DNA from: an uncultured Gammaproteobacteria bacterium
GTDB lineage: Bacteria; Pseudomonadota; Gammaproteobacteria; Arenicellales; CAJQKF01
Assembly (NCBI GenBank): GCA_965652415.1
Contig: CBFGVH010000004.1
Span: 3,071-67,070 of the forward strand
DNA length: 64,000 bases
Reading direction: 5' to 3'
The notes beneath the pieces are model-generated. The model was given only the letters and a program-made list of their open reading frames with translations, ran no database searches and had not been told where the DNA came from. The position numbers were made by a program, and so were the translations under genes. Shown here in pieces: positions 2,401-62,664 of the stretch (positions are counted from its first letter, which is position 1; every line of letters begins with the position of its first letter).

Positions 2401-2961
2401 ATGCAAGACATCGACCAGCAGGCGCAGCATTACCGCCAGATCATCGCCGGTATCGGGGAAGACGTCGATCGCGACGGCCTTCGCGACACGCCGCTGCGCG
2501 CCGCCCGCGCGCTCGCGTACCTGACCCGCGGGTACGGCCAGAGCCTGGACGAGGTGGTCAACGGCGCCGTGTTCGACTCGAGCAACGACGAGATGGTGAT
2601 CGTCAAGGACATCGAGGTGTACTCCCTGTGCGAGCATCACCTGCTTCCCTTCATCGGCAAGTGCCACGTCGCCTACCTGCCGACCGGCAAGGTCATCGGC
2701 CTGTCGAAGGTGGCCCGCATCGTCGACATGTTCGCCAGCCGCCTGCAGATCCAGGAGAACCTGACCAGCCAGATCGCCGAGGCGGTCAACGAGATGACGC
2801 ACCCGCGCGGTGTCGGCGTGGTGGTCGAGGCCAAGCACCTGTGCATGATGATGCGCGGCGTGCAGAAGCAGAACTCGGTGATGACGACGTCGATGATGAT
2901 CGGAACCTTCCGCACCGACCACCGCACCCGCTCGGAGTTCCTGGGCCTGGTATCCGGATAG
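2401..2961 (+). CDS. folE: GTP cyclohydrolase I
   Basis: ATG at 2401 ('MQDIDQQ'); the track ORF starts at a TTG at 2365. Hallmark '[20 protein letters not shown]' and '[15 protein letters not shown]'. Confidence 0.9.
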
Positions 2962-2970
2962 AACAGACGC

Positions 2971-3621
2971 CTACCCGCGTTCGTCCACGATCCGCATCCG
3001 TCCTCCTTCGAGCACGATCACTCCCTCGGCGATCAATGCCCTGAGCACGCGACCGGTCCGCTCCCGAGAGGCGCCGACCATGTCGGCGATGAGCTGCTGC
3101 GTGAGCCCCTCGGCAACCACCCCCCCGTCCTGGGCCGGATCGGCGAAGCGCCTCAGCGTGCAGATGACGCGCCCGCGCACGTCGCCGCCGGCCATGCTTT
3201 GCACGCACCCGGTGAGGTTGCGGATCTTGTGCGCAAGGCCGTGAATGATGCACGCCGCCAACTGCGGATGGCGATCGATGCAGGCACGAAAGCGATCGCG
3301 CGGGATGACCAGGAGCCGGGTCCTGGCCGTGGTCATGACGGACGTTCCGCGCACGGCTCCGTCTATCAGGGCCACCTCGCCGAACCAGGCGCCGGTCGTC
3401 TCCACGCCGAAGATCGCCTCGCGCCCGCCTCGGGCGCTGGCGAACCGTTTCACCGCGCCGGCGAGGATGACGTAGAGCGCCTCGCCGGGCTCGCCCTCGG
3501 AAACCACCAGGGTATCCGGCGGCAGCACCCAGACGTAGCCCATGTCGATGATGCGCCGGATGGCGTCGTCGTCCAGCCCCGCGAACAGGGCGATGCTGTC
3601 GGCAAGTTCCCGCGTGTCCAT
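2971..3621 (-). CDS. Crp/Fnr family transcriptional regulator
   Basis: 216 aa. cNMP-binding beta-roll ('GEPGEALYVILAGAV...FGEVALIDG') plus a C-terminal HTH ('MVGASRERTGRVLRALIAEGVI'). Last gene of the minus-strand C1 operon. Confidence 0.8.
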   Translation of the reverse strand: MDTRELADSIALFAGLDDDAIRRIIDMGYVWVLPPDTLVVSEGEPGEALYVILAGAVKRFASARGGREAIFGVETTGAWFGEVALIDGAVRGTSVMTTARTRLLVIPRDRFRACIDRHPQLAACIIHGLAHKIRNLTGCVQSMAGGDVRGRVICTLRRFADPAQDGGVVAEGLTQQLIADMVGASRERTGRVLRALIAEGVIVLEGGRMRIVDERG

Positions 3622-3684
3622 GCGCCGTGGCTCCCTGGGTCGCGATCCGCTGCGATTACTCCGGCGGTTCCCTCCGCCGCCGCG

Positions 3685-5745
3685 TCAACGCCTTCGTCGC
3701 CGGCGTCGTCCACCCGCGCCGCCTGCCGCCGAATCCGCGCGCGGCGCCGGCAGCGTCACCTCCTTGGCCAGCTCGGTGAAGACGATGGTCTTGTGCGGGA
3801 ACGCCATGGCCTCGACGAAGTGCTGCTGGAACTTCGGTTCGACGGCCGTTTCGACCTTCTCGATCCGTCGCACCTCGGCCTCGATTTCGACTCGCGACTT
3901 GCGATCGACGAGGGCGATCGAGGCACCGGTGCCGGCCGCGTTGCCCGCCGAGGTGACGTGTTCCAGGCGACAGTCGGGAATCATGCCGAGCACCATCGCG
4001 TACTTGACGTCGATGTGTGCGCCGAAGGCGCCGGCCAGGCGAATGCGGTCGACGCGATCGATTCGCATCTTGTCCATCAGGAGCCGCGCCCCCGCGAACA
4101 AGGCCGCCTTTGCGAGCTGGATGGCGCGCACGTCGTTCTGGGTCAGCGCCAGGCGCACGTTGCCGTCGTGGAGCAGGTAGGAGAAGGTCTTTCCAGCCGA
4201 AAACACGCGCGTACTGCGCGCCGCGTTGGCGCCGTCGATGATGCCGTCGGTCGTGATCACCCCGGCGAGAAACAGCTCCGCGATGAACTCGATGATGCCC
4301 GAGCCGCACACGCCGGTAATGCCCACGTGCGCGGATGCCTCGGCGAACCCCTCGTCGTCGGACCACAGGTCGCAGCCGATCACCTTGAATCGCGGCTCGA
4401 GTGTCACCGGGTCGATCCTCACCCGCTCCACCGCGCCGGGCGCGGCGCGCTGGCCGCAACTGATCTGGGCTCCCTCGAAGGCGGGTCCGGTCGGGCTCGA
4501 CGCGGCGAGCAGCTTCCTGCGGTTGCCGAGCACGATCTCGGCGTTGGTCCCCACGTCGACGACCAGCGTCAGTTCGTCGCGAAGGTACGGCGCCTCTGAC
4601 AGCACCACGGCCGCCGTGTCGGCGCCGACGTGCCCAGCGATGCAGGGCAGCACGTAGACCATGGCGCGCGGATTGACGTCGAGACCGAGTTCCGCGGCGC
4701 TGGCGCGGACCGCCTCGTCGGTCGCCAGCGCGAACGGCGCGCCGCCGAGCTCCACCGGGTTGATGCCGAGAAACAGGTGATGCATGACGGGATTGCCCAC
4801 CAGCACCAGTTCCAGAACGCTGGTCGAATCAACGCCCGCCTCCTCGCACGTTTCGCGGACGAGGTCGCAGACGGCCTCGCGAACCACGCGGGTCAGCTCG
4901 ACTTCGCCTCCCGGGTTCATCATCACGTACGACACCCGGCTCATGAGGTCCTCGCCGAAGCGGATCTGCGGATTCATCACGCCCGCCGAGGCCGCCGCCC
5001 TGCCGGTCGAAAGATCGATCAGGTGGGCGGCGATGGTGGTCGAGCCCACATCGACCGCGACGCCGTACACGCGGTCGTGATAGCCGGGCCACAGCGCCAC
5101 CACGCGCCTGCCGTCCGCCACCGCGACGGTGACCGCGAAATTTCCGTCTCTCAGGATTTTCTGGAACCCCGGCAGGAGCGGCGCCGGGAACTCGAGGTCG
5201 GTCAGCGACCATTCGAACTCGAGCGCCTCGCGCAGCCGCCTCAGGTCTCCGGCCGGGTCGTGCATGTCGGGTTCGGGCACCTCGACGAAGAAGATCCGGA
5301 TGGCGGGATCGACCTCGATGCTGTGCACCTCGACGCGCTTGCGCACCACCTGCTTGTGGACCTGGCTGTCGGGCGGCACGTCGATGACGACGTCGTCGAG
5401 CATCGACGCGGAACAGGCGAGCCTCCTGTCCCCGTGCCGGCCGAGGGTCTGGAAATAGGTGCGCTCGGTCTCGGTGACCGCCGACAGGTGATCGGCGCGC
5501 GAGTCGATGCCGTGCTTGGCGAAGCTGCCCTCGCTGAGCTTGACCTGGCAGCGCCCGCAGATGCCGCGGCCGCCGCACACGGAGTCGATATCGACGCCGA
5601 GCATGCGCGCGGCCTCGAGCACGGTGGTGCCGCGGGCGAACGCGCCGCGCTTGCCCGACGGCGTGAACACGACACGCACCTGCGCGGCGGCTTCGGCCGC
5701 GAGGGCATCGTCGCTTTCGATGGCGGTGTTGATCCGGCTGGTCAA
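3685..5745 (-). CDS. Corrinoid reductive activase-like protein (2Fe-2S ferredoxin domain + ASKHA/DUF4445 ATPase)
   Basis: 686 aa with a TTG start. N-terminal plant-type ferredoxin motif 'CGGRGICGRCQV' and a large ASKHA-type body ('GVAVDVGSTTIAAHL', 'LVVDVGTNAEIVLG'). Confidence 0.8.
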   Translation of the reverse strand: MTSRINTAIESDDALAAEAAAQVRVVFTPSGKRGAFARGTTVLEAARMLGVDIDSVCGGRGICGRCQVKLSEGSFAKHGIDSRADHLSAVTETERTYFQTLGRHGDRRLACSASMLDDVVIDVPPDSQVHKQVVRKRVEVHSIEVDPAIRIFFVEVPEPDMHDPAGDLRRLREALEFEWSLTDLEFPAPLLPGFQKILRDGNFAVTVAVADGRRVVALWPGYHDRVYGVAVDVGSTTIAAHLIDLSTGRAAASAGVMNPQIRFGEDLMSRVSYVMMNPGGEVELTRVVREAVCDLVRETCEEAGVDSTSVLELVLVGNPVMHHLFLGINPVELGGAPFALATDEAVRASAAELGLDVNPRAMVYVLPCIAGHVGADTAAVVLSEAPYLRDELTLVVDVGTNAEIVLGNRRKLLAASSPTGPAFEGAQISCGQRAAPGAVERVRIDPVTLEPRFKVIGCDLWSDDEGFAEASAHVGITGVCGSGIIEFIAELFLAGVITTDGIIDGANAARSTRVFSAGKTFSYLLHDGNVRLALTQNDVRAIQLAKAALFAGARLLMDKMRIDRVDRIRLAGAFGAHIDVKYAMVLGMIPDCRLEHVTSAGNAAGTGASIALVDRKSRVEIEAEVRRIEKVETAVEPKFQQHFVEAMAFPHKTIVFTELAKEVTLPAPRADSAAGGAGGRRRRRRR

Positions 5746-5771
5746 TTTATTTCGGCGGCAGTTGCGACAGA

Positions 5772-6680
5772 TTACGATCGGGCGCGGCGGCGGCGTCCGG
5801 CGCGCTTCTCCCTGGCCCCGCCCTGTCCTTCGGCGGCGGGCTCGCGATAGCGGCGAATCCAGCTTCGGCAGTCCGGATCGTGTCCCATCATGACGTCGGC
5901 GCCGAGGATGGCCTGTACCACCTCGGCATGCAGCGGGTTGGTGATGGCCGAGGTCATGCCAGCGCCAATGGCCATGGTCAGGAAGGCCGCGTTCATGCCG
6001 TTGCGATTGGGCAGGCCGAAGCTGACGTTGGATGCGCCGCAGGTCGTGTTGACCTTGAGCTCGTCACGCAGGCGGCGCACCAGCCGCAGCACCTGGACGC
6101 CGGCGGTGTTGATGGCGCCGATGGGCATGACCAGCGGATCGACCACGATGTCCGACACCGGGATGCCGTGGTCGGCGGCGCGCTCGACGATCTTTTTCGC
6201 CACGGCGAAACGCACGTCCGGATCCTCCGAGATCCCGGTCTCATCGTTGGAAATCGCCACCACGGCGGCGCCGTATTTCTTCACCAGCGGCAGCACCGAC
6301 TCCAGCCTGTCGTCTTCGCCGGTCACCGAGTTCACCAGCGGCTTGCCCTTGTAGACCGCGAGACCCGCCTCGAGCGCCGCGACGATCGAGGAGTCGATCG
6401 ACAGCGGCACGTCGGTCAGGGACTGCACCAGCTGGACCGCTTCGGCCAGGATTCGCGGCTCGTCGGCAAGCGGAATGCCCGCGTTGACGTCGAGCACATG
6501 AGCGCCGGCCTCGACCTGCGCGATGGCGTCCGCCTCGACGCGGCTGAAATCGCCCGCGGCCATCTCCTGGGCCAGCAGCTTCCTGCCGGTGGGATTGATG
6601 CGTTCGCCGATTAACACGAACGGTCGGTCGAACCCTATCACCACCTCGCGGCTGGCGGAGCTGATCACGGTATCGGTCAC
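5772..6680 (-). CDS. Methyltetrahydrofolate:corrinoid methyltransferase (pterin-binding, MetH/AcsE-like domain)
   Basis: 302 aa. 'VLIGERINPTGRKLLAQEMAAGDF...AGAHVLDVNAG', 'PLSIDSS', 'NSV', 'TCGASNVSFGLPNR'. Its GTG start overlaps the metF stop (GTGA). Confidence 0.85.
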   Translation of the reverse strand: MTDTVISSASREVVIGFDRPFVLIGERINPTGRKLLAQEMAAGDFSRVEADAIAQVEAGAHVLDVNAGIPLADEPRILAEAVQLVQSLTDVPLSIDSSIVAALEAGLAVYKGKPLVNSVTGEDDRLESVLPLVKKYGAAVVAISNDETGISEDPDVRFAVAKKIVERAADHGIPVSDIVVDPLVMPIGAINTAGVQVLRLVRRLRDELKVNTTCGASNVSFGLPNRNGMNAAFLTMAIGAGMTSAITNPLHAEVVQAILGADVMMGHDPDCRSWIRRYREPAAEGQGGAREKRAGRRRRARS

Positions 6681-7720
6681 TGTGCAAGCCTCATGTCTGT
6701 GTTTGCGGGGCGGTTGGGAAACCAGGGCACGCGACCCTCGAGGATCCCGGAAGCGTCCACGATCTCGGCAACCGACTCTTCCTGCCGGTAGGCCATGATG
6801 TGGATGCCGGCCACTCCCTTGATTTCACGAATTCGCTGAATCAGTTCGATGCAGATCTTCTTGCCTTCGAGCCTGGGCTTTTCGGCCTTGAGCAGCCGCT
6901 CGATCACGTCGTCGGGAATATGCACGCCCGGCACGTGGTCGCGGATCCACGACGCGGCCCGCCCCGACGCCAGCGGCCCGACCCCGACCAGGATGAACAC
7001 CTTCTCGTCCAGGCCCCGGTCGCACACCTGTTCCATGAACCGCTCAAGGCGCGGCACGTCGTAGCAGTACTGGGTCTGCACGAACTGCGCCCCCGCGGCC
7101 ACTTTCTTCGCCAGCCGGTCGACGCGAAAGTCGAGCGGCTCGGCGAACGGGTTCTCGGCGGCGCCGAGAAAAATCTTCGGCGAGAAGTCGAGTTTGCGCC
7201 CGCTCAGGAACTCGGACTCGTCGCGCATTCGCCGCGCCGTGGTCAGCAGCGACATGCAGTCGAAGTCGAACACCGGCTTGGCGCCCGGCTGGTCGCCGGC
7301 CTGCACGCCGTCCCCGGACAGGCACAGGATGTTCGCCACGCCCATCGCCGCCGCTCCGAGAATGTCTCCCTGGATGGCGATGCGGTTCCGGTCGCGGCAG
7401 GAGATCTGCATGATCGTCGAGTAGCCGACGCGCGTCAGAAGCGCGCACACGCCGACGCTCGACATGTGGCAGTTGGCGCCCGATCCGTCGGTCGCGTTGA
7501 TCGCATCGACGTAGCCGTCGAATATCCTCGCCCTCAGGTACACCTCTTCCGGGTCCGCGGAGTCCGGCGGGGCCAGTTCCGCCGTTACCGCGAACTTGCC
7601 CCCGCGCAGCACGCGCTCGAACCGCCCCGGCGACACGTGCCCGGGAAGTATCGGCAGAGAATAACCCGGAACCGGCTCGTCTTCAAAGTACATGGCCGAA
7701 CTCCCCGCCCGACGGGGCAT
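6677..7720 (-). CDS. metF: Methylenetetrahydrofolate reductase (MetF, MetV-associated type)
   Basis: 347 aa. 'FAVTAELAPP', 'DAINATDGSGA', 'QISCRDRNRIAIQGDILGAA..GV.NILCLSGD'. ATG at 7720; an alternative ATG lies at 7693. Confidence 0.85.
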   Translation of the reverse strand: MPRRAGSSAMYFEDEPVPGYSLPILPGHVSPGRFERVLRGGKFAVTAELAPPDSADPEEVYLRARIFDGYVDAINATDGSGANCHMSSVGVCALLTRVGYSTIMQISCRDRNRIAIQGDILGAAAMGVANILCLSGDGVQAGDQPGAKPVFDFDCMSLLTTARRMRDESEFLSGRKLDFSPKIFLGAAENPFAEPLDFRVDRLAKKVAAGAQFVQTQYCYDVPRLERFMEQVCDRGLDEKVFILVGVGPLASGRAASWIRDHVPGVHIPDDVIERLLKAEKPRLEGKKICIELIQRIREIKGVAGIHIMAYRQEESVAEIVDASGILEGRVPWFPNRPANTDMRLAQ

Positions 7721-7721
7721 T

Positions 7722-8189
7722 TCAGGATTGCTGGTAGAACTGCTCGTCGCGAAGACGCCGTACCTCGCGCAACCACGCAGAGGAGCCTTTCAGGGAACGG
7801 TCGACCACCACCTGAACGTCGAGAATGCGCTGTCCGTTGCGCATCCTGAGGCTCCCTTCGTAGGCCTCGACCCACACGCATCGCATATCGGGCTTCACCT
7901 CGCAGTTCCCGTTGGCGCGCACGCCGCCGCACGGCCCGTTGCGAATCTCCTTGGGGCAGTTCATGGGGCAGGACATGCCGGTGGAGCTGAGCACGCAGCG
8001 GCCGCACATCCGGCAGTCGAACAGGAATCCCTTGACCCGCTTCTCGATCGCGGTCACCGGCTTTTCGACACGGTCGTAGCCGATTTTCAACCACAACGGG
8101 TGCAGCGCGGCGAAGAACCGCTCGAAGTGCCGATAGAACCACTCCATCTGTCGTGCGTGGCGCACCGACCATCGTCTCACCGCGTACAT
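7722..8189 (-). CDS. Methylenetetrahydrofolate reductase C-terminal-domain protein (MetV-like, Cys-rich)
   Basis: 155 aa. Cysteine cluster 'CRMCGRCVLSSTGMSCPMNCPKEIRNGPCGG'. Sits immediately upstream of metF. Confidence 0.75.
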   Translation of the reverse strand: MYAVRRWSVRHARQMEWFYRHFERFFAALHPLWLKIGYDRVEKPVTAIEKRVKGFLFDCRMCGRCVLSSTGMSCPMNCPKEIRNGPCGGVRANGNCEVKPDMRCVWVEAYEGSLRMRNGQRILDVQVVVDRSLKGSSAWLREVRRLRDEQFYQQS

Positions 8190-8201
8190 GGCAGCTCGCC
8201 G

Positions 8202-8510
8202 TCAGTCGTCAGCGGCGGGACGGCGGCCCTTGCCGCGAATCATCGCCGCCAGCATGTCGTCGTCGATGGATGCCTGAAGTACCTCGGCGCGCGCCCGGGC
8301 CGCGGCGTCGATGTCGCCCGAGACTTCCTCGGTCTCGCGCCGCCATTCCTCGAGGTAGGCGTCGGTGCCGCCCTTGCCGGCGCGCATGGCGGCGCGGTCG
8401 ATGGCTTCCTGGAAACGTTCGGGCAGCTGCACCTTGGCCGTGCGCCTGCCCTGCTTGACGATGACCTGGGCCGGGATGTCGCGCCAGTACACGGTGATGA
8501 GTTTCGCCAT
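8202..8510 (-). CDS. Small uncharacterised protein ('virulence factor' family by recollection), corrinoid-cluster associated
   Basis: The track ORF extends to 8630; the ATG at 8510 gives 'MAKLITVYWRDIPAQVIVKQGRRTAKVQLPERFQEAIDRAAM...'. It is 102 aa and sits 7 nt from the DUF1638 stop. The family name comes from memory only. Confidence 0.5.
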   Translation of the reverse strand: MAKLITVYWRDIPAQVIVKQGRRTAKVQLPERFQEAIDRAAMRAGKGGTDAYLEEWRRETEEVSGDIDAAARARAEVLQASIDDDMLAAMIRGKGRRPAADD

Positions 8511-8517
8511 GGCGGCG

Positions 8518-9117
8518 TCAGACGAGGGCTTCGAGAGCGGACTCGAACGCATCGAGCCCGGTCGGCACGCGCTCGTACTCGAGGCCGAGGAAGGCCGCGG
8601 CATCGGCGGCCTCGCGATCCAGTGCCGCATCGTCGCTCTGCGCCAGGTACACCAGTCGGCGGTAGTTGCCGAAAAGCATGTCCTTCAGTTCGGGGTGACG
8701 GTCGATGCCCATGCCCTTGACGATCAGGCGGGTGAAATTGCGTGCGAGGTAGTCGGTCAGGTAGAAGGTGGCCGCGTCACGCTCGGCCAGTTCGGCGAAT
8801 CGGCCGGCGCCGGCGAAGAACTCGTAACAGTGGGCGCCCGGGATGCGATCGACGCCGTGCCGGCGCGCCACCTCATCCAGCAAGCCCCCGCTGCCGCAGT
8901 CGGCGTAGCCGATCACGATGCGCTCGAAGCGGCCCTCGTTCTCCATGATCTTGCGCTCCACCGCCGGCGCGATGCGCTCGGGCCGGTTGTGCAGTTCGGC
9001 GGGCAGGCATTGGATCTCGACCGCCTGCCAATCGTTGAGGCGCCGGATGCGTACCAACTCGTTCGCCACGGCGCCGCAGGCGATCACGAGCACCTTGCCC
9101 GGGGCGTTGGAGGACAT
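8518..9117 (-). CDS. DUF1638 domain-containing protein
   Basis: ATG at 9117 ('MSSNAPGKVLVIACGAVANEL...'). 'IGYADCGSGGLLD', 'GAHCYEFF', 'FYLTDYLARNF'. The start is 4 nt from the corrinoid-protein stop. Confidence 0.7.
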   Translation of the reverse strand: MSSNAPGKVLVIACGAVANELVRIRRLNDWQAVEIQCLPAELHNRPERIAPAVERKIMENEGRFERIVIGYADCGSGGLLDEVARRHGVDRIPGAHCYEFFAGAGRFAELAERDAATFYLTDYLARNFTRLIVKGMGIDRHPELKDMLFGNYRRLVYLAQSDDAALDREAADAAAFLGLEYERVPTGLDAFESALEALV

Positions 9118-9121
9118 CGTC

Positions 9122-9835
<714 letters not shown>

Positions 9836-10041
9836 GATTCACTCACTCGATACTGCTGGGGTCCGCTGCCGCCGGGGTACGCCTGGAAGGCGTCGGGCGG
9901 CCGTTCGGCTGGTCGCCTTCGGGCACCCATCGTACCCGATTCGCCGGCGATTTATGGGCCACGGAGACACCGGCTGCTGGCGCCGGCGCGACACCAGTTT
10001 ATAGTAGAACGACAAACGCTAAAACCTCGCCCCGCACGCGG

Positions 10042-11712
10042 TCAAAACAGACCGGTGGTGTTGCCGGATTCGTCGAGACGAATGCGGGTAGCGGCAGGCA
10101 CCCGCGGCAGTCCGGGCATGGTCATGATGTCACCGCAGATCACGACCAGGAAACCGGCGCCGGCGGCCAGGCGCACCTCGCGCACTGGCACCACGTGATT
10201 CGACGGCGCACCGCGCAGGGCCGGGTCGGTGGAGAAGCTGTACTGGGTCTTGGCGATGCATACCGGGAGATGGCCGAAGCCGTCGTCCTCGAAGGCCTTG
10301 AACTGAGCCCGCACACGGCTTTCGGCGGTGATGTCGTCGGCCCCGTACAGGCGCCGGGCGATGGTGCGCACCTTCTCCCAGGGAGACAGCGAGTCCTCGT
10401 AAAGAGGCATGAACTGGCTGCGGCCGGCCTCGGCCAGCGCCGCCACCTCGCGCGCCAGCTGCTCGGTGCCGGCGCCGCCTTCGGAGAAGTGGGTACAGGG
10501 CACCGCGGTCACGCCGTGGCCGGCGCAGAACTCCTTCACCAGTTCCAGTTCCGCGTCGGTATCGCTGGCGAAGCGGTTGATGGCCACCACCAGCGGCACG
10601 CCGAACTGGTGAACGTTCTCGATGTGTCGGCGCAGGTTGGCGAAACCTTCACGGACGGCATCGAGGTTTTCGGCGCCGAGTGCGTCCCGGGCCACGCCGC
10701 CGTGGTACTTCAGGGCGCGAATCGTCGCCACCAGCACGGCGGCGTCGGGCGCCAGGCCCGACTTGCGGCACTTGATATCGAAGAACTTCTCGGCCCCGAG
10801 GTCGGCGCCGAAGCCCGCCTCGGTGACCACGAAGTCGGCCAGCCCCAGGGCGGTGGTGGTGGCGATCACCGAGTTGCAGCCGTGTGCGATATTTGCAAAC
10901 GGCCCGCCGTGGATGATCGCCGGGTTGCCTTCCAGTGTCTGCACCAGGTTGGGACTGAAAGCATCCTTGAGCAGCACGGTCATCGGCCCGGCCGCTTCGA
11001 GTTCCGCACAGCGAATCGGCCGGCGTTCGCGGGTGTAGCCGACGATGATGTCGCCCAGGCGCCGCTCGAGGTCCTCGAGACTCGATGCCAGGCAGAAGAT
11101 GGCCATCACCTCGGAGGCCACGGTGATGTCGAACCCCGACTCGCGCGGGAAGCCGTTGGCGATGCCGCCCAGGGCCACGTTGACCTGGCGCAGGGCGCGG
11201 TCGTTCATGTCCAGCACCCGTCGCCAGGCCACCCGGCGCGTGTCGAATCCGAGCTCGTTGCCCCAGTAGATGTGGTTGTCGATCATCGCCGCGAGCAGGT
11301 TGTGGGCCGCGGTGATGGCGTGAAAATCGCCGGTGAAATGAAGGTTGATGTCCTCCATGGGGATCACCTGAGCGTATCCGCCGCCGGCCGCGCCGCCCTT
11401 CATGCCGAAGCAGGGCCCGAGGCTCGGCTCGCGCAGGCACACCACCGCGTTCCTGCCGATGCGGTTGAGGCCGTCGGTGAGGCCAACCGAGGTCGTGGTC
11501 TTGCCCTCGCCTGCCGGCGTGGGAGAAATCGCCGTGACCAGCACCAGGCGCCCGCGCGGCCGTGCCGCGGCCTCGTTCACCATCGCCGCGCCGATCTTCG
11601 CCTTGTCGTGGCCGAAGGGACGCAGGTGCTCCCACGCGATGCCCAGGCGCTCGCCGATCTCGCCGATCGGACGGGGGGTGACGCTGCGGGCGATTTCTAT
11701 ATCGGATTTCAT
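10042..11712 (-). CDS. fhs: Formate--tetrahydrofolate ligase
   Basis: ATG at 11712 ('[11 protein letters not shown]'). FTHFS signature '[16 protein letters not shown]' and '[11 protein letters not shown]'. Confidence 0.95.
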
Positions 11713-11908
11713 CTCGGGCACGAACGCGTTCTCCGGCGGATGGACGGGCGCCAAGGCCCATTGCGAAAGTGCGCGTAGCGTAGCACCCGCCCCGCGCGAG
11801 ACTTTGCCAGCGGCGCCCGCCGCGAAGCGAAAAACGACTCGCGCGAGCCGTCCCGGTGACGCCGCCGGGCGCTGCCCGTGCGGCCGCGCACCCTGAGGAG
11901 GCGTCGCC

Positions 11909-13144
11909 CTACGTCGAGGCCGTCTCGGGCAGGTGCCTGAAGTCCCGCTCGCGCATGCCGATCAGGTAGAGGATGCTGTCGAGGCTCGATGCTCCCAGCG
12001 CCAGTCGCGCCTGGCGCCGCACCACCGGCTTGGCGCGAAAGGCGATGCCGAGACCGGCGATGCTGAGCATTTTGAGATCGTTGGCGCCGTCGCCGACGGC
12101 AATCACCTGCTCCAACCGGATGCCCTCGCGCTCGGCTATGGTGCACAGCAACTCCGCCTTCCTGTCCTCGTCGATGATCTCGCCGACGACCTTTCCCGTC
12201 AGCCGACCGTCGACGATCTCGAGCTCGTTGGCGTAGACGTAGTCGATGCCGAGACGCTCCTTCAGGCGACGGGCGAACCACGTGAATCCTCCGGAGATGA
12301 TCGCGGTCCGAAACCGGTAGTGCTTCAGCGTCCGCACCAGGGCCTCGGCGCCGTCGGTCACCCTGACCGATTCCGCCACCTTCTCGAGCTCCTCCTCGCC
12401 CAGCCCCCGAAGCAGCGCAAGGCGCCGGGTGAAGCTTTCCTTGAAATCGAGTTCGCCGGCCATGGCCCTCGCAGTGATGCGACCGACCTCGTCGCCGACG
12501 CCGGCGACGCGGGCAAGCTCGTCGATCACCTCGTTCTGGATCAGCGTCGAGTCCATGTCGAAGCACACCAAGCGGCGGTTGCGCCGGAACACGTTGTCCT
12601 CCTGGATGGCGACGTCGATGTCGAGGCTCTGCGACAGCTGCAGGAACGTGGCGTGCATCACCGACAGGTCCTTGACGTCGCCGCGCACGTGGAAGTCGAT
12701 GGCCGCGCGCCGCTTGTGCTCCGGGGTGCTCAGAAGCGCACGACCCGACAAGCGGTTGATGCGATCTATGTTCAGTCCCCCGACCGCGATGAGCTCGGCG
12801 ACGCGGCAGATGTGCTCGGCACGGATCTGCTTGCCGAGCACCGTGATCACGTGCCGCGAGCGGCCCTGCTGGCCCACCCAGCGGCTGTACTCGGCCTCGC
12901 TCACCGGGGTGACGTGCATGTTCAGACCGAGCCGATGGGCCTCGAACATCAGTTCCTTGAACAGGGCCGAATCCGACGCCTGGGGCGGGATCTCCACCAG
13001 CATGCCCCAGGCGAGGTTGTCGTGGATCACGGCCTGGCCGATGTCCAGCACGTTCAGGTGATAGCGCCCCATGATCGCGGTCAGCGACGCGGTGATGCCG
13101 GGGCGGTCGGAGCCGGTGACGTTGACAAGAACGATCTCGCTCAT
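11909..13144 (-). CDS. serB: Phosphoserine phosphatase (ACT-domain + HAD)
   Basis: 411 aa. N-terminal ACT-like repeats ('[16 protein letters not shown]') and HAD motifs 'FDMDSTLI' and 'GDGANDL'. Confidence 0.85.
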
Positions 13145-13197
13145 GGCCTTGTGCGAGCGCGGGCCTGTTCAGCAGGGAATGGCCGCTGGACGCCCGG

Positions 13198-14301
13198 TCA
13201 CGCCGGGTTGGCGGCGCGGAACGCGGCCATGAAGTCGACAAGGGAGCGCACTCCCGCTTCCGGCATGGCGTTGTAAATGCTGGCACGCACGCCGCCGACG
13301 CTCCGATGGCCCTTGAGGTTGACCATGCCCCGCGCGGCGGCCTCCTTCAGAAAACGCGCCTCGAGGGCCTCGTCGGGCAGGCGGAACACCACGTTCATGT
13401 GCGAACGGCAGGCCTTGTCGACGGGGCTGCGGTAGTATCCGCCGCTGCCGTCGATGGCTTCGTACAGCAACCCCGCCTTTCGCGCTGCGGCGAGTTCCAT
13501 GGCCTCGAGGCCGCCGTTCGCCTCGATCCACCTCAGGACCTTGCCCAGCATGTACACCGCGAAGACCGGCGGGGTGTTGAACATGGAGTCCTTGTCGACG
13601 TGAACGTCGTAGCGCAGGTAGCGTCCCAGGGCCTTGTTCAGACCGGCAACGACGGAATTGCGGACGTACACCACCGCCAGCCCCGCAGGCCCGAGGTTCT
13701 TCTGCACGCCGCCGTAGACGAGGTCGACACGGTCCCAGGGTATGGGCCTGGCCATGTACTCCGAGGAGACGTCGGCGATGAGGGGCACGGACACATCGGG
13801 CCACTCCGGGAAGCGGATACCGCCGATGGTTTCATTGCTGGTGATGTGCAGGTAGCGGGTGCCGCCGCGGATCGCGATCTCGTCCGAAGAAGGCATGCGC
13901 GCGTAGCCGTGCGCCTGACCGTCCCAGGCGACGTACACGTCGCCGTAGCACTTCGCGTCGGCGATGGCACCCTTCGCCCACGAGCCGCTGTCGACGTACC
14001 CGGCGCATGCGCCCTCGGCCAGGAAATTCATCGGCACCATCGAGAACTGCAGCGTCGCCCCGCCCTGCAGGAACAGGACCTCGAACTCGTCACCGCAGCC
14101 GGCCACGCGCCGCGCCAGGTCCTTGGCCTCCTCGTGCACCGCCATGAAATGACTGCCGCGATGACTCATCTCGACCAGGGACATGCCCGAACCCTGGTAG
14201 TCCACGAACTCCTGCTGAACCTCGCTCAACACCTCCAGCGGAAGGGTGGAAGGACCGGCACTGAAATTGAACACCCGATTGACGGTGCCTGGATGATTCA
14301 T
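13198..14301 (-). CDS. serC: 3-phosphoserine/phosphohydroxythreonine aminotransferase
   Basis: ATG at 14301 ('MNHPGTVNRVFNFSAGPSTLP'). 'MSLVEMSHRG' and 'GGVQKNLGPAGL'. The track ORF carries a 28-aa extension. Confidence 0.9.
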   Translation of the reverse strand: MNHPGTVNRVFNFSAGPSTLPLEVLSEVQQEFVDYQGSGMSLVEMSHRGSHFMAVHEEAKDLARRVAGCGDEFEVLFLQGGATLQFSMVPMNFLAEGACAGYVDSGSWAKGAIADAKCYGDVYVAWDGQAHGYARMPSSDEIAIRGGTRYLHITSNETIGGIRFPEWPDVSVPLIADVSSEYMARPIPWDRVDLVYGGVQKNLGPAGLAVVYVRNSVVAGLNKALGRYLRYDVHVDKDSMFNTPPVFAVYMLGKVLRWIEANGGLEAMELAAARKAGLLYEAIDGSGGYYRSPVDKACRSHMNVVFRLPDEALEARFLKEAAARGMVNLKGHRSVGGVRASIYNAMPEAGVRSLVDFMAAFRAANPA

Positions 14302-14492
14302 CGAAAACTCCGGGGGGCGATCGGTGCGCCGCCGTCCACCGCGCGGGCACGCACCGATCCGTTGACGAGACGTTCCTGAAGACAAGGACGGACGATCTCT
14401 GCCCGACGCGGGCGGTGGGAGCGGCGACTTCGGCCGGGCCCCGCGGGCAGGCTCGCATTATAACAGGGGCGCGCCGCCCACGCCCGCGGCCG

Positions 14493-15854
14493 TCACGGGG
14501 CCGGGATGACGACCCTGACGTCGGCGCCGCCGGCGACGGCGGTACCGATATCGATCTCGCCGTCGTAGCTTTCGACGATGTCTCGCACGATGGACAGGCC
14601 GATGCCCTGTCCCGGGATCCGCTCGTCGGCACGCACGCCGCGGCGCAGAACGTCGCGGGCCAGCGCCGGCTCGATCCCGGGACCGTCGTCGGCCACCGAC
14701 AGCTCGACACCGCGCGCGCTTCGGTGCGCGCGCACGCGCACCTCGCCGGCGGTCCACTTGCAGGCGTTCTCGATCACGTTGCCGACGACCTCCATGAGAT
14801 CGCCCTCGTCCATGGGCACTGTCAGGCCCTGTTCCACGTCGACCGCGAGGTGCAAGCCGCGCTCGGCATAGACCTTGCGGAGCGTGCGCACCACCTTGTC
14901 GACCACGGGGCCCACGGCGATGGGCGGGATGTTCACGCGGCCTCCGGAGCTCGCGGCACGCTTGAGCTGGTAGTCGACGATATCGGACATGCGCCGGACC
15001 TGCTCGGCGAGCGTGACCCGCGCGCGATCGGCATCACCGTCCTCCTCGGTCAGCCCGCGCAGCACCGCGAGCGGCGTCTTCAGGCTGTGCGCGAGGTCCC
15101 CGAGCGAATTGCGATAGCGCTCGAGCGAGCGCTGGCTGCTTTCGATCAGGCGGTTGACGTTGCGGGTCAGCCCGCGAATCTCGTCCGGGTAGGCTCCCTG
15201 CACCAGCCGCTGCTCTCCCCGCTCCACCCGGTCGATCTCGCGCCCGACCCTCGACAGGGGCCTCAAGGCCCAGTGGAGGATCGACAGCTGCAGGGCCATC
15301 AGCAGGCCGACTCCCGCCGCGCTCCACAGGAAGAGGTTGCGTCGGAAACTGTCGACCTGTGCGCGGTACCGCGCCAGGTCCTCGGCGACCACGATCGTGA
15401 AACCGTGCTGCTCTCCCTCGGCCGATTCCCAGGCCACGCCGAAGCGCAGGGTGAAAAGATCGGTGCCTCCCTCGGTCCGTTCCAGCCCGAAGCGAGTCGA
15501 ACCGACCGGCATCGCGTAGGCGCTCGGCTCGACCAGCGGCGAGATCGCCGACGGCGAACGCCACACGTTGCCGCCGTCGGTGTCGTAGGCGAACGCGTAG
15601 AGTCCCGACCCCACCACCGAGAAGCGCGGCTCGACCAGCCGCTCGGGAAGGTAGATATTGCCCTCGGCATCGACTTCCGCCGCGGTCAGCAACGCGTAGA
15701 GCTGGGCGTTGAGCTGCTCGCGCACCGAGTCGCGCGCGGCCTGCTCGAAGGCGTTGTGCAGCACCGCGACGGCAACGGCGGCAAACATGAGCACCACCAG
15801 CGATGCGATGGCGAGCAGGCGAGCCCTCAGTGAACTGAACAGACCGAGCGCCAC
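14493..15854 (-). CDS. Sensor histidine kinase (PhoQ/QseC-like)
   Basis: H-box 'LGDLAHSLKTPLAVL', N-box 'NVIENACKW', G-boxes 'DDGPGI' and 'GQGIGLSIV', plus two TM segments. The track ORF runs to 15947 and overlaps the regulator by 80 nt. The GTG at 15854 gives a 13-nt gap and is preferred. Confidence 0.8.
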   Translation of the reverse strand: MALGLFSSLRARLLAIASLVVLMFAAVAVAVLHNAFEQAARDSVREQLNAQLYALLTAAEVDAEGNIYLPERLVEPRFSVVGSGLYAFAYDTDGGNVWRSPSAISPLVEPSAYAMPVGSTRFGLERTEGGTDLFTLRFGVAWESAEGEQHGFTIVVAEDLARYRAQVDSFRRNLFLWSAAGVGLLMALQLSILHWALRPLSRVGREIDRVERGEQRLVQGAYPDEIRGLTRNVNRLIESSQRSLERYRNSLGDLAHSLKTPLAVLRGLTEEDGDADRARVTLAEQVRRMSDIVDYQLKRAASSGGRVNIPPIAVGPVVDKVVRTLRKVYAERGLHLAVDVEQGLTVPMDEGDLMEVVGNVIENACKWTAGEVRVRAHRSARGVELSVADDGPGIEPALARDVLRRGVRADERIPGQGIGLSIVRDIVESYDGEIDIGTAVAGGADVRVVIPAP

Positions 15855-18859: not shown

Positions 18860-19864
18860 TCAGGCGGGTTCGCCGAACCGGTCCAGCAGTTCTCGCGGCA
18901 GCGCGATACCCTGCGCCGCCGCCCTTGCACGCGCCTCGAGCCGGCGCGAGCCGGGCAGGCGCACGCCGGGCTGGGCCATCATGGCGCCGATCAGCGCTTC
19001 GAGGCGGTCGGCGAACGCGCCGCCCGAAAACACGGCCGGATCGAAGCCGATCAGCAGCTGGCCAACCCCGGGGGGCTCGCCCTCGGCGTCGAAGAACGAC
19101 GAGGCCTCGTAGCCGAAGTTGGCGCCGGTCAGCGCGGCGGCGAGGATCTCCACCATCATGACCAGGGCCGAGCCCTTGGCATCGCCGATGGGCAGCATGG
19201 TTCCCGCCATGGCGGCCGCGGCATCCGTGGTCGGACGCCCTTCGGCGTCCAGCGCCCAGCCCGGCTCGATCGCCTCGCCCTTCGCCGCCGCCACCATGAT
19301 CCTGCCCCGCGCCACCTTGCTCAACGAAAGATCGATGACGAGGGGCGGGTCGGCGGCGCGCGGGGCCGCGAAGGCGATCGGGTTGGTGCCGAACAGGCCG
19401 GCGCTGCCGCCCCACGGCGCGATGGCGCGGGGACTGTTGCCGAAGCCCAGCGCAACCAGCCCGCGTTCGGCGAGCCGTTCCACGTGAAATCCGGCCTGGC
19501 CGAAGTGATGAGAGCGGAAAACCCCCGCGGAGGCGATGCCGGTCGTTCGTGCATGCTCTGCGACGCGGTCGATGGCGAGGTCCATGGCCGGGAAGGCGAA
19601 GCCGCATGCCGCGTCGATGCGCACCGCGGCGGCCGACTCCTGCACCACTGTCGGCTCGGCAAAGCCGTCGACCTTGCCGGACGCCGCCTGGGCGGCGTAG
19701 GACGGCAGCCGCGACAGGCCGTGCCCCTTCTGGCCGTCCGCCTCGGCAGCGACCAGGGCGCGGGCCACGCTGGCGGCGTTGGCCCTCGAGGTATCGTGCC
19801 GCTCGAGCGCCCGGGCGACGAATCGTTGGGCCTCGTCGAGATCGACGATTACGGAGTCGTTCAT
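18860..19864 (-). CDS. Ldh_2-family (malate/L-lactate/sulfolactate dehydrogenase family) oxidoreductase, ComC-like
   Basis: 334 aa. 'GQKGHGLSRLP', 'SHHFGQAG', 'LFGTNPIAFAAP', 'GDAKGSAL'. ATGA overlap with the upstream dehydrogenase. Confidence 0.8.
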   Translation of the reverse strand: MNDSVIVDLDEAQRFVARALERHDTSRANAASVARALVAAEADGQKGHGLSRLPSYAAQAASGKVDGFAEPTVVQESAAAVRIDAACGFAFPAMDLAIDRVAEHARTTGIASAGVFRSHHFGQAGFHVERLAERGLVALGFGNSPRAIAPWGGSAGLFGTNPIAFAAPRAADPPLVIDLSLSKVARGRIMVAAAKGEAIEPGWALDAEGRPTTDAAAAMAGTMLPIGDAKGSALVMMVEILAAALTGANFGYEASSFFDAEGEPPGVGQLLIGFDPAVFSGGAFADRLEALIGAMMAQPGVRLPGSRRLEARARAAAQGIALPRELLDRFGEPA

Positions 19865-20796
19865 GGACGGCGCCGATCCAGCACGCGGCGCACGTTGTCG
19901 GCGGTCACCCGGCTCACACGCACGTTGGATTCGTTGGTGACCCCGGCGACGTGCGGAGTCAGCACGAGGTTCGGCACTCCTTCGAAGCGCCGCGCCGCCT
20001 CGCCGGCCAGGGGCTCGGATTCGAACACGTCCAGGGCCGCGCCCGCGATTTCGCCGGAGAGCAGGGCCTCGGCCAGCGCCGCCTCGTCCACGACGCCGCC
20101 GCGGGCGGTATTGACCAGGACGGCCTCGCGTTTCATGCGGCCCAGCTCCGCGGCGCCGACCAGGCCGCGGGTCTCGTCGGTCAGCGGAACGTGAATGCTG
20201 ACGATGTCCGACTGCGCGAGCAGCTGGTCAAGTGTGTCCAGGCGACCCGCGCCGGCGAGGTTCACGCCGTCGGCGAGGTGGGGATCGTACGTGGCCACGG
20301 TCATGCCGAACGCGCGGGCCCGGTGAGCGGTTTCCCGCGCGATGCCGCCGAAGCCGACGAGGCCCAGGGTGCGCCCGCTGAGTTCGCCGCCGATGCCCGC
20401 GCTGCGCGGCCAGGCGCCCACGACGACCTCGCCCGATCGCAGGAACACGGGCCTGATCAGCAGCATCGCGGCGGCGATGACGTACTCGGCGACAGCCACG
20501 TCGTTGGCGCCGCCGGCCGGACAGACCTCGACGCCGCGGCGCGCGCAGGCGTCAAGATCGATATTGTCGAGGCCCACGCCGAGGCGGCCCACCACTTCCA
20601 GCGCGGGCGCCGCGTCCAGCAGCGCCTCGTCGACGCGGGTTCGGTTGCGTACCACCAGGGCGCGCGCACCAGGCAGCAGTGAGACCAGGCGTTCGCCGTC
20701 GTCGACCAGCGCGGGATCGTAAACGACGCGGTAGTCGCCGGCCAGGGAGTCGACCACCGGGCGGTCCATGAACTCGGTGATGACGATGTCGCTCAT
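19861..20796 (-). CDS. D-isomer-specific 2-hydroxyacid dehydrogenase family protein
   Basis: 311 aa. NAD-binding 'GLVGFGGIARE', 'NTARGGVVDE' and 'LTPHVAGVT'. Confidence 0.85.
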   Translation of the reverse strand: MSDIVITEFMDRPVVDSLAGDYRVVYDPALVDDGERLVSLLPGARALVVRNRTRVDEALLDAAPALEVVGRLGVGLDNIDLDACARRGVEVCPAGGANDVAVAEYVIAAAMLLIRPVFLRSGEVVVGAWPRSAGIGGELSGRTLGLVGFGGIARETAHRARAFGMTVATYDPHLADGVNLAGAGRLDTLDQLLAQSDIVSIHVPLTDETRGLVGAAELGRMKREAVLVNTARGGVVDEAALAEALLSGEIAGAALDVFESEPLAGEAARRFEGVPNLVLTPHVAGVTNESNVRVSRVTADNVRRVLDRRRP

Positions 20797-20824
20797 GGCC
20801 GGCTTGCCGCGCCGTCGGCTTTCG

Positions 20825-22000
20825 TCAGGCGCTCTCGTAGAGCCGGGTCAGCACGAACTCGCGATGGCCGAGCGACTCCGCCGCCGTCAGGCGGCCATTG
20901 GCGGTGCGCAGCATCATCTCGAGCAGCGCGTCGCCCGCCTCGTCAGGCGTCATCTCCTTGCGCAGGAGTCCGGACACGTCGACGTCGACGTGCTCGCTCA
21001 TGGTGCGCACGGTACGCGGATTGGCGCACAGCTTGATCACGGGCAGCACGGGGTTGCCGATGATGTTGCCCTGGCCGGTGGGAAAGAAGTGCACCACGAA
21101 GCCCGAGGCGGCGCACAGGGTGACCATCTCGGCCGCGGCGCTGGAGGAGTCCATGAACCACAGCCCCGGCCCGGTGGGCATCTCGGCCTTGTCCAGCACG
21201 CCGTCGACCAGGCATTTCCTGCCGATCTTCTGGATGTTGCCGAGCGCCTTCTCCTCGATGGTGGTCAGGCCGCCGGCGATGTTGCCCTTGGTGGGCTGGG
21301 AATCGGACAGGTCGTTGGTCTTGTGGCGGTTGATCATGTCCTGGTAGCGGTTGAACATGAACATGAAGCGATCGCGCACCGCGTCGTCGCGGCAGCGCTC
21401 GGCCACCAGGTGTTCGCCGCCGGTGATCTCGGAAGTCTCGCCGAACAGCAGCGTCACACCCTTGTCGTACATCTTGTCGAAAGCGTTGCCTACCGTAGGG
21501 TTCGAGCCGCAGCCGGAGGTCGTGTCGGACTCGCCGCACTTGGTCGACACCCACAGCTCCGCCAGCGGGGCTTCCTCGCGCTGCTTCTCCGACGCCCACT
21601 GCACGTACTCCTTGGCCGCCTTCGAGGCGCGCATGATGGTGTCGTGGTCGCCGTGCAGCTCGATGCCGAAGCCGGTGACCGGCTTGCCGGTGGCGGCGAT
21701 GCCGTCTACGACGCGCCGGGTCCACTGCTCCTCGATGCCGATCACCACCACGGCGGCGACGTTGGGATTGGCCCCGGTTCCGATCAGGGTGCGAAAGTGC
21801 AGCTCGAGGTCCTCGCCGAACTGCAGGCGCCCATACGGATGGGGAATCGCCATGGCGCCCTTGATGTTGTTGGCGACCGCCTCGCAGGCGGCGTTCGACA
21901 GGTCGTCGACCGGCAGGATGATGACGTGATTGCGCACACCGACACGGCCGTTTTCGCGGCGGTAGCCGAGGAATGTTGCGTTGTCGAGATCGATGGACAT
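20825..22000 (-). CDS. UxaA-family dehydratase/lyase large subunit (SuyB-like)
   Basis: ATG at 22000 ('[30 protein letters not shown]') with a GGAGAG SD. UxaA C-terminal family features. The large subunit is separate from the SAF subunit, as in sulfolactate sulfo-lyase. Confidence 0.8.
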
Positions 22001-22040
22001 GGAATTTCTCTCCGGGATGTTCGTGCGTTTGCGGCTTCGG

Positions 22041-22322
22041 CTACCAGCGCTTGGTCTTGATGTTGTGCACGTGGGCGTGCTCGCCGAGGCCAATGTCGGC
22101 GACCACCCGTCCGATGTCCACGCCGTACTTGATCACCGTGTCGCCTTCCTTCAGCGGCTTTATCGCAAGCTTGTGGCCGATGGGAATGTCGCCGGCGGCC
22201 TTGAACTGGATCTCCCTGTCCTGGTCCATGATCCAGCCGGTCAGCTCGTCGCCGGCATTTACGCCTTCGACGACGACCACGCCGACGGAATCGTTCTCGT
22301 CATGCACCACGAACTGGATCAT
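22041..22322 (-). CDS. UxaA-family SAF-domain small subunit (SuyA-like)
   Basis: ATG at 22322 behind an AGGAGGG SD. 93 aa: '[27 protein letters not shown]...[24 protein letters not shown]'. Confidence 0.75.
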
Positions 22323-22412
22323 CTGCACCCTCCTGAGGTTGAACCCGGCTGCCCGGGAGCGGGGATTGTCGATGCGGGAACTATAGGCGAAGCGTTGAGT
22401 CTTGTCAATATA

Positions 22413-22444
22413 CTCAGATAACTCTTATATAAGAGTTATCTGAG
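22413..22444. promoter_or_regulatory. Perfect 32-bp palindrome in a divergent promoter (candidate GntR operator)
   Basis: CTCAGATAACTCTTAT|ATAAGAGTTATCTGAG has 16-nt arms and no mismatch. It is AT-rich, lies 90 nt upstream of the suyA-like ATG, and lies 79 nt upstream of the gntR ATG. Confidence 0.6.
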
Positions 22445-24102: not shown

Positions 24103-24186
24103 TGAATGACGCCGTGAATGACGCCGCCGACCCGTTGCCGGCGCGGACGGCCGGCGGGGCCGGCAGCGCCGGCCCCGCGCGCCGTG

Positions 24187-24879: not shown

Positions 24880-25065
24880 GAACTCTCCCGGTTGAATGGG
24901 GATGCAGGGGGCGCTGTCGCGGCTACGATGCCCGATTCTACCATTTCGCGACCCGCGCCGTCGTGCAGGCCGACACCGAATCTGTCGATGCGCCGGACAA
25001 CCATGAAGATGATGAAGGATTTGTATAAAATGACGGTAAACCCCGAACGGACAAGGACTCAGCCC

Positions 25066-26601: not shown

Positions 26602-26685
26602 CACTGATCAGGGCGCCGCTCTCTCGACGCCTGCCTGTGCGATAATCCGCACCCCGTCCCAATCACTCGACGACAGAGGTCCGCC

Positions 26686-32460: not shown

Positions 32461-32473
32461 GCGTACCTCCGGC

Positions 32474-45288: not shown

Positions 45289-45367
45289 CTGGAACCTCCG
45301 GTATGGCGGTAAGTGTTGGGAACCTTGCCTCACCGACCGCGATCGACCGGATGTTTCCGCGATGCGA

Positions 45368-62639: not shown

Positions 62640-62664
62640 GAAGGGATTTCCGTACGACAGTCAG

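Follow-up and report, generated by a model that had tools for sequence, protein, structure and literature searches.

Which enzyme loads the corrinoid protein encoded by a compact one-carbon (C1) gene block of an uncultured gammaproteobacterium, and what does a block without such an enzyme do? The block lies in a 64 000-nucleotide stretch of contig CBFGVH010000004.1 (assembly GCA_965652415.1, positions 3071–67 070; lineage Arenicellales, CAJQKF01), which is referred to here as the window, and consists of nine minus-strand genes (2971–11712). An initial annotation made from the sequence alone treated it as an unexplained, incomplete module, the downstream half of a corrinoid-dependent demethylation pathway. 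We conclude, with a probability of roughly 85%, that the block is a gammaproteobacterial MtgC/MtgD corrinoid methyl-transfer hub, encoded together with its maintenance and C1-processing enzymes and completed by separately encoded methyltransferases. The apparent incompleteness is that of a published, ecologically important system in which MtgC and MtgD are served by exchangeable MtgB and MtgE proteins (PMC5764234; PMC12478193), so that the puzzle disappears; the anabolic role of the same proteins as a split methionine synthase had been overlooked.

The system was defined genetically in two roseobacters. Phaeobacter inhibens makes methionine by means of a three-part split MetH, comprising B12-, pterin- and homocysteine-binding proteins, and also requires a DUF1638 protein and a ferredoxin/DUF4445 protein resembling RamA; methionine rescues mutants in each of the five genes (Price et al., 2018; PMC5764234). 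In Ruegeria pomeroyi, mtgC and mtgD knockouts are methionine auxotrophs and do not grow on glycine betaine (Mausz et al., 2025; PMC12478193). MtgB, a member of the MttB family, is the donor-specific methyltransferase and MtgE is the homocysteine module; the R. pomeroyi MtgB paralogues and MtgE are encoded at other loci, and no protein is induced more strongly on N-osmolytes than MetF2, which is encoded beside mtgD; RamA and DUF1638 are induced as well (PMC12478193). The hub genes are dispersed in both roseobacters and are often clustered elsewhere, including in Gammaproteobacteria and Sinorhizobium meliloti, the bmt gene of which has been equated with mtgE (PMC12478193). P. inhibens has four dispersed mtgB genes, and its MtgBCD and MtgECD complexes compete (preprint 10.64898/2025.12.19.695462).

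The gene content of the block is secure, as Pfam and NCBIfam bear out all nine of the initial assignments. In transcription order, the first gene encodes formate–tetrahydrofolate ligase (FTHFS; 10042–11712; PF01268, E = 3e-262; NCBIfam NF010030, 894 bits against a cutoff of 652), followed by a 237-residue MtgC-type corrinoid protein (9122–9835) with B12-binding_2 (PF02607) and B12-binding (PF02310) domains and a DxHxxG motif of the form D-I-H-D-I-G. Next come a DUF1638 protein (8518–9117; PF07796, E = 6e-30), a 102-residue protein (8202–8510) that had been left without a family and belongs to PF13769 (‘Virulence_fact’, E = 5e-24), a MetV-like small subunit with eight cysteines (7722–8189; PF12225, E = 3e-27) and a MetF2-type methylenetetrahydrofolate reductase (MTHFR; 6677–7693, with an alternative start at 7720; PF02219, E = 7e-34). 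The remaining three are an MtgD-type pterin-binding methyltetrahydrofolate (methyl-THF):corrinoid methyltransferase with a GTG start (5772–6680; PF00809, E = 8e-30; NF005719, 375 bits against a cutoff of 259), a RamA/RACo-like activase with the Pfam domains Fer2, RACo_linker, Raco_middle and RACo_C_ter (3685–5745) and a Crp-family regulator with cNMP-binding (PF00027) and helix–turn–helix (PF13545) domains (2971–3621). The range 3685–11712 first given for the nine genes holds eight of them, the Crp gene falling outside it. The window has a G+C content of 62–71%, which fills raw lists of open reading frames (ORFs) with spurious frames; one coding frame per region was chosen by codon-position G+C.

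The corrinoid protein is closely related to MtgC proteins of the aerobic Proteobacteria. It is 80–83% identical to Roseobacter-group orthologues (Ruegeria atlantica, Leisingera, Epibacterium and others) and 85–100% identical to the best 120 database matches, among which are Arenicellales, Acidiferrobacteraceae, Shimia and Dehalococcoidia names. In a set of 80 species-representative genomes drawn from Gamma-, Alpha- and Betaproteobacteria, Acidimicrobiia, Thermoleophilia and Candidatus Udaeobacter, in which the host species is absent, the identity is 78–90%. The nearest named genome is the metagenome-assembled genome (MAG) GCA_027493835.1, with 98% identity in MtgC and ∼92% at the DNA level; the MAG ‘marine bacterium B5-7’ keeps the same synteny as the window. 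The NCBIfam MetH model is matched by both the MtgC and the MtgD proteins.

Synteny joins these identities in establishing orthology. The mtg locus of S. meliloti (CP090106.1, 2.216–2.234 Mb) contains counterparts of seven of the genes in the same order as in the window at 50–79% identity: MtgC 79%, DUF1638 50%, PF13769 53%, MetV-like 66% (the neighbor of the MTHFR), MetF 69%, MtgD 64% and activase (an ASKHA protein) 59%. The full S. meliloti order is bmt, a divergent MttB-family gene, cobalamin-binding protein, DUF1638, formyltransferase, ‘virulence factor’, MetV-like, MTHFR, MtgD and ASKHA. In S. meliloti, an MttB-family gene is divergent from mtgC and bmt lies ∼8 kb away, whereas the window has neither; S. 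meliloti also has extra small genes between DUF1638 and PF13769 that the window does not. The same seven-gene operon is found on plasmid pAZKH of Azoarcus sp. KH32C (NC_020548.1), in which MtgD (80% identical and in the same operon position) and MetF (73%) are closer to the window proteins. A glycine-betaine ABC transporter and a dimethylglycine dehydrogenase (DMGDH)-like gene flank the Azoarcus operon, and no MttB gene lies within 12 kb of it, as in the surroundings of the window operon. The Azoarcus locus differs from the window in having PurU instead of FTHFS, electron-transfer flavoprotein genes beside the dehydrogenase and a GlxA-type regulator rather than Crp and DeoR regulators, and in being on a betaproteobacterial plasmid. 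In Azoarcus, the mtg operon is followed by the gene for the glycine-betaine binding protein and then directly by one for a 404-residue hypothetical protein with no Pfam domain (L099:18129–19343); the latter was considered as a hidden substrate-specific methyltransferase (MT1) and dropped, as no counterpart gene lies beside the window operon.

To place these loci in a wider frame, we surveyed the 80 genomes for genes within 10 kb on either side of mtgC by tblastn with reference proteins; for 55 of the loci, 18 kb or more of sequence is available. The window's exact seven-gene order recurs in 23 of the 80 loci, in several phyla, so the arrangement is not due to chance, and ten of these 23 have no MttB gene nearby. 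Among the 55 longer loci, the genes found near mtgC are DUF1638 (45), activase (40), MtgD (39), PF13769 (35), MttB (22), MetF/MetV (19) and MtgE (12). When the 39 loci with MtgC, MtgD and activase together are considered, MttB occurs within 10 kb in 20, MtgE in four and neither in 19. A hub without an adjacent substrate-specific methyltransferase is a common layout and not a gap. Roseobacter-group loci show the MtgE–MtgC–DUF1638 layout published for P. inhibens, and a related gammaproteobacterial lineage has the order MtgC–DUF1638–PF13769–MtgD–activase, followed by an AraC/GlxA-type regulator and an MTTB gene, with MetF and MetV absent.

That no enzyme in the window loads the corrinoid, as first reported, is confirmed by two approaches. 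Pfam searches of the called window genes, apart from the ORFs 22041–22424, 26608–26943 and 44968–45513 and the DeoR gene, returned no PF06253 (MttB), MtaB/MtbB/MtmB, URO-D or PF02574 domain; for the Ldh_2 and retropepsin-like genes at 18.2–19.9 kb, the precomputed annotation was used. Additionally, tblastn searches (E ≤ 1e-3) of the window and its leftward extension gave no match to S. meliloti Bmt/MtgE or to two MttB proteins, one from S. meliloti and one from a related gammaproteobacterium. The absence of an MT1 from the locus is explained by the fact that substrate-specific methyltransferases are often encoded elsewhere in the genome, and we infer that the host has MtgB and/or MtgE at another site. 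The same Pfam annotation of the window genes contains no MetH reactivation domain (PF02965), no carbon monoxide dehydrogenase/acetyl-CoA synthase (CODH/ACS) and no corrinoid iron–sulfur protein (CFeSP; AcsC/AcsD); the single CdhD signal is a weak secondary match inside the Pterin_bind protein.

The accessory enzymes point to the processing of methyl groups through methyl-THF, and the initial pathway logic, from methyl-corrinoid to methyl-THF, methylene-THF and formate, stands. The best NCBIfam match of MetF is the MTHFR half of a clostridial-type bifunctional enzyme, the Escherichia coli-type MetF model matching with an E value of only 7e-4. The MetV-like protein, which is invariably paired with MetF in related loci and matched no solved structure in a sequence search, is presumed to be an Fe–S or zinc partner of MetF. 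The activase, with an N-terminal 2Fe–2S ferredoxin domain and an ASKHA domain, is predicted to return Co(II) to Co(I) in an ATP-dependent manner; the NCBIfam AcsV and RamA models both match it below their cutoffs, AcsV being the better of the two (389 against 800 bits). FTHFS lies upstream of MtgC in five of the 55 loci; beside MtgC, a formyltransferase takes its place in S. meliloti and PurU in Azoarcus. PurU is irreversible and works in the oxidative direction, and its presence, or that of a formyltransferase, in the FTHFS position of relatives therefore supports oxidation. We propose that FTHFS is the exit of C1 oxidation, converting 10-formyl-THF to formate with the formation of ATP. The Crp regulator occupies the same position in near relatives (L001, L011 and L013), yet in only two of the 80 wider loci, and is a lineage-specific addition; its translation has no N-terminal cysteine cluster.

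The likely substrate is indicated by the genes to the left. Metagenome contigs at least 99.8% identical to the window extend it leftward, to ∼18 kb in all with the further contig described below, and no co-transcribed MT1 lies just outside the window; instead, there is a divergent DeoR regulator and then, left of window position 1, a separate minus-strand ABC transporter operon with DMGDH-like genes (transporter/dehydrogenase units L006:97–7509 and L012:2917–6257 on the extending contigs). It encodes a divergent OpuAC-type binding protein, which matches the ProX and choline models weakly, a ProV-subfamily ATPase above its NCBIfam cutoff and a fused double permease that passes the choline-permease model, as well as an APH/choline-kinase-like (GntI-like) gene and an 814-residue DAO/FAO_M/GCV_T dehydrogenase of the dimethylglycine/sarcosine-dehydrogenase type. 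A further contig, on which the copy of this dehydrogenase is 97% identical, continues with a second dehydrogenase (804 residues) of this type and another kinase-like gene, and beyond this pair with unrelated genes (major facilitator superfamily transporter, S26 peptidase and LutABC). The combination of a betaine/choline-type transporter and DMGDH-like genes suggests betaine as the main catabolic use (glycine betaine to dimethylglycine, sarcosine and glycine), and from this context glycine betaine would be the donor in the host. Each ∼800-residue dehydrogenase is paired with an APH/choline-kinase-like gene. Of the five longest assemblies listed, four break off within ∼8 kb of the DeoR gene on its left side and reach no farther than the first dehydrogenase, perhaps owing to paralogous repeats.

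These observations can be combined into a working scheme. A quaternary amine would enter by the adjacent ABC transporter, and an MttB-family MtgB encoded elsewhere would demethylate glycine betaine or a related amine, thereby loading MtgC, which by analogy with the studied hubs would be the cobalamin-bearing methyl carrier. MtgD would shift the methyl group between methyl-cob(III)alamin and THF in both directions. Inactive Co(II) would be reduced again by the RamA/RACo-like activase, with the use of ATP and its 2Fe–2S domain, DUF1638 probably assisting. MetF2/MetV would oxidize methyl-THF to methylene-THF, from which FolD (encoded elsewhere) and then FTHFS would yield formate and ATP, while the DMGDH-like enzymes would carry dimethylglycine on to glycine. 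In the methionine-synthase mode, a PF02574-type MtgE, also encoded elsewhere, would unload the corrinoid onto homocysteine, and such methionine synthesis is likely to be a second role of the hub in this host. The dual function, betaine demethylation and methionine synthesis, is taken from the Ruegeria and Phaeobacter genetics and is expected here by analogy.

Several points weigh against this assignment. The NCBIfam MtgC models NF047995 and NF047996 score the corrinoid protein below their cutoffs (213 against 370 bits and 178 against 310 bits, respectively). The pattern of scores suggests that these models represent the anaerobe type, and proteobacterial MtgC proteins form a clade apart from those of anaerobes (Mausz et al., PMC12478193). 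Orthology to the experimentally studied MtgC proteins SPO2160 and PGA1_c13350 was judged with congeners and S. meliloti as stand-ins. Neither MtgB nor MtgE was found for the host in the window and the ∼18 kb to its left. Gene context is the sole guide to the direction of flux, and the divergent OpuAC-type binding protein gives no firm indication of its substrate.

Might the genes then serve methionine synthesis only, as a split cobalamin-dependent methionine synthase (MtgECD) to which MetF supplies methyl-THF, with no catabolic demethylation? The genetics of P. inhibens first defined them as a split MetH (PMC5764234), and ∼70% of marine genomes with MtgBCD have no MetH (PMC12478193). No MttB gene lies near the window operon, and the neighboring serB, serC and folE are anabolic. 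We nevertheless consider a purely anabolic role unlikely: FTHFS heads the operon, where relatives have a formyltransferase or the irreversible PurU; the MTHFR is of the MetF2 type that is induced on N-osmolytes; a betaine/choline-type transporter and a DMGDH-like gene adjoin, with a second such gene in a near relative; and seven of the nine related loci with a DMGDH-like gene also have MttB. A different donor, such as choline, carnitine, proline betaine, trimethylamine or chloromethane, acted upon by another MttB paralogue or by a non-MttB enzyme, is possible but doubtful. Glycine betaine is the only donor experimentally shown for this type of hub (PMC12478193; 10.64898/2025.12.19.695462), the DMGDH-like neighbors are the steps expected after betaine demethylation and the corrinoid protein stands alone with no fused CmuA-type domain. 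On the other side, as many as seven MttB-family ORFs of unknown specificity occur in genomes that have mtgC and mtgD (PMC12478193), the OpuAC-type protein of the neighboring transporter is weak on both the ProX and the choline models, APH/choline-kinase-like genes accompany the dehydrogenases and MtgC is reportedly near the corrinoid domain of CmuA (PMC12478193).

A remnant or variant of the Wood–Ljungdahl methyl branch (FTHFS, MetFV, AcsE-like and RACo/AcsV proteins) was also considered. MtgD passes the NCBIfam model named ‘methyltetrahydrofolate:corrinoid/iron-sulfur protein methyltransferase’, AcsV is the best NCBIfam match of the activase, and FTHFS with a MetV-type MTHFR is typical of acetogens. 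With no CODH/ACS or CFeSP among the Pfam-annotated window genes, an AcsV score far under its cutoff, a corrinoid protein of the MtaC/MtgC type and closest relatives that are mtg loci of aerobic Proteobacteria, such an origin is highly improbable; we rejected it on the missing CFeSP and CODH/ACS and on the AcsV score.

Comparison with better known systems is consistent with the MtgC/MtgD hub. The window shares with Ruegeria and Phaeobacter a stand-alone MtgC followed by DUF1638, an MtgD encoded beside a MetF2-type MTHFR, a RamA-like ferredoxin activase and substrate-specific methyltransferases coded apart from the core. The roseobacters, in contrast, scatter the core over several loci, whereas the window has it in one block with FTHFS, MetV-like, PF13769 and Crp genes added. 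The MtgABC/RamA systems of Desulfitobacterium hafniense and Methanolobus vulcani similarly consist of an MttB-family MT1, a corrinoid protein and a second methyltransferase with ATP-dependent reactivation, but the hub type of the window also serves methionine synthesis and its corrinoid protein falls below the NCBIfam MtgC cutoffs. Judged from its relatives, the present host is probably aerobic. E. coli-type MetH has pterin-binding, B12-cap and B12-binding modules of the same chemistry; in the window these modules are split among several proteins, neither PF02574 nor PF02965 occurs and reactivation is assigned to a RamA/RACo-type ATPase. In the cmu pathway of Methylobacterium and Hyphomicrobium, CmuB transfers the corrinoid methyl group to THF, and MetF2, FolD and PurU lead to formate. 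CmuA is a fused methyltransferase–corrinoid protein, in contrast to the stand-alone corrinoid protein here, and a Cmu assignment was rejected as Pfam found no URO-D, MtaA-like or CmuA-type methyltransferase domain in the window.

Two components of the hub deserve closer description. The PF13769 protein is always stand-alone and of ∼100 residues, with a strongly conserved, arginine-rich N-terminal region of 60 residues and no cysteine. An AlphaFold2 (AF2) model with a mean predicted local distance difference test (pLDDT) score of 92.9 has the topology β-β-β-α-α-β-α-α; a Foldseek search of the PDB with this model gave no match (best E value 0.22, TM-score 0.27), and a sequence search of solved structures gave chance-level matches only. 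In the 55 loci, PF13769 and MtgD occur together in 33, PF13769 only in two, MtgD only in six and neither in 14 (Fisher p = 8e-7), and PF13769 immediately precedes MetV or MtgD in 44 of 49 occurrences. It is kept in the related gammaproteobacterial lineage in which MetF and MetV are absent. In Pseudorhodobacter turbinis, where mtgC and mtgD are 327 kb apart, it lies ∼1 kb upstream of mtgD, and all eight plasmid-collection records with PF13769 also have an MtgC homologue. In Alpha-, Beta- and Gammaproteobacteria alike, PF13769 thus accompanies MtgD in conserved synteny. We tentatively suggest, at somewhat less than even odds, that it is an unrecognized dedicated part of the MtgD half of the hub, which could assist docking or set directionality between MtgD and MtgC, or could act together with the activase. 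The literature found on the MtgC/MtgD system does not mention PF13769, and this absence is the sole modest novelty of the locus.

DUF1638 was initially listed as unassigned. Its P. inhibens mutants are methionine auxotrophs that methionine rescues, and it co-occurs with the RamA-like protein (PMC5764234). In the present survey, it directly follows MtgC in 45 of the 55 loci. At 50% identity the family has ∼1600 representatives, each of them a stand-alone protein. Across 36 aligned sequences, Cys14, His43 and Cys97 are invariant and Cys74 is at least 90% conserved, with the motifs LPAxLHNxP, YADCGTGG and HCYxFF. These residues suggest a metal or cluster site, which would fit a role in cobalamin reactivation. 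No solved structure was matched by sequence search, and a single-sequence AF2 model was poor (pLDDT 60) and was left out of use. By analogy with P. inhibens, we propose that DUF1638 is an accessory factor of the hub with a role in cobalamin reactivation or loading.

Recognition of the hub has consequences for annotation. Its genes still carry generic names (‘B12-binding domain-containing protein’, ‘dihydropteroate synthase’, ‘ASKHA domain protein’ and ‘virulence factor’), and identifying them as a unit lets annotators call B12-dependent betaine demethylation and methionine synthesis in uncultured Gammaproteobacteria. The compact one-operon form, in which FTHFS, MetV-like and Crp genes are added and a quaternary-amine transporter and a DMGDH-like gene adjoin, favors a catabolic interpretation beyond the roseobacters, and PF13769 is a candidate missing component of the machinery.

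The operon is mostly, but not uniformly, tightly spaced. From FTHFS to Crp the intergenic gaps are 206, 4, 7, 12, 28, −4, 26 and 63 nucleotides. The GTGA overlap and the 4- and 7-nucleotide gaps described initially are correct; the 206-nucleotide gap between FTHFS and the corrinoid gene does not fit the description, and the reported 1-nucleotide gap requires the MetF start at 7720. Inspection of the sequence places GTGA at 6680..6677 as the 4-nucleotide overlap of MetF with the start of mtgD; the 4-nucleotide gap separates the DUF1638 gene from the corrinoid gene upstream, and the Crp gene is 63 nucleotides downstream of the activase gene. Cobalamin, SAM, THF and ZTP riboswitches were sought with Rfam, and neither these nor any other Rfam family reached the gathering score anywhere in the window; over 2800–14700 the only match was a chance miRNA match (E = 0.74). 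A scan of 2800–13400 predicted no promoters and a number of terminators not above that of shuffled sequences. The 206-nucleotide spacer (9836–10041), which has no Rfam match, may hold an internal promoter that sets FTHFS apart from the seven-gene core.

The operon is flanked, as first described, by folE (2401–2961, plus strand) on one side and by serB (11909–13144) and serC (13198–14301), both on the minus strand, on the other. Between the DeoR regulator and folE, a plus-strand gene (1216–2295) encodes a 359-residue AlaDh_PNT-family protein; it keeps its position in all close relatives and adjoins a DAO-family oxidase in MAG B5-7.

Further along the window, the region 57653–63999 has a lower G+C content (62–64% against ∼68% elsewhere) and encodes a C39-peptidase ABC exporter, a second ABC protein and two proteins without a Pfam match, of 308 and 444 residues, the second of which lies at the edge of the window. 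The region resembles an island for bacteriocin or peptide export and may have been acquired horizontally. A plus-strand open frame of up to 827 residues (24118–26601), with a signal-like N-terminus, Gly/Asp-rich repeats and no Pfam match, probably encodes a secreted or surface protein. The minus-strand region 18860–22424 contains an Ldh_2-family dehydrogenase, a SerA-like D-2-hydroxyacid dehydrogenase and an altronate/galactarate-dehydratase-like protein, together with an EamA transporter and a GntR/UTRA regulator; its function may be the catabolism of sugar acids or hydroxy acids rather than serine biosynthesis. Finally, at 30413–32481 (minus strand), a polysaccharide-deacetylase-family gene overlaps a gene for a Creatinase_N and Peptidase_M24 protein of the creatinase, prolidase or ectoine-hydrolase type, which may be another N-osmolyte-related enzyme.

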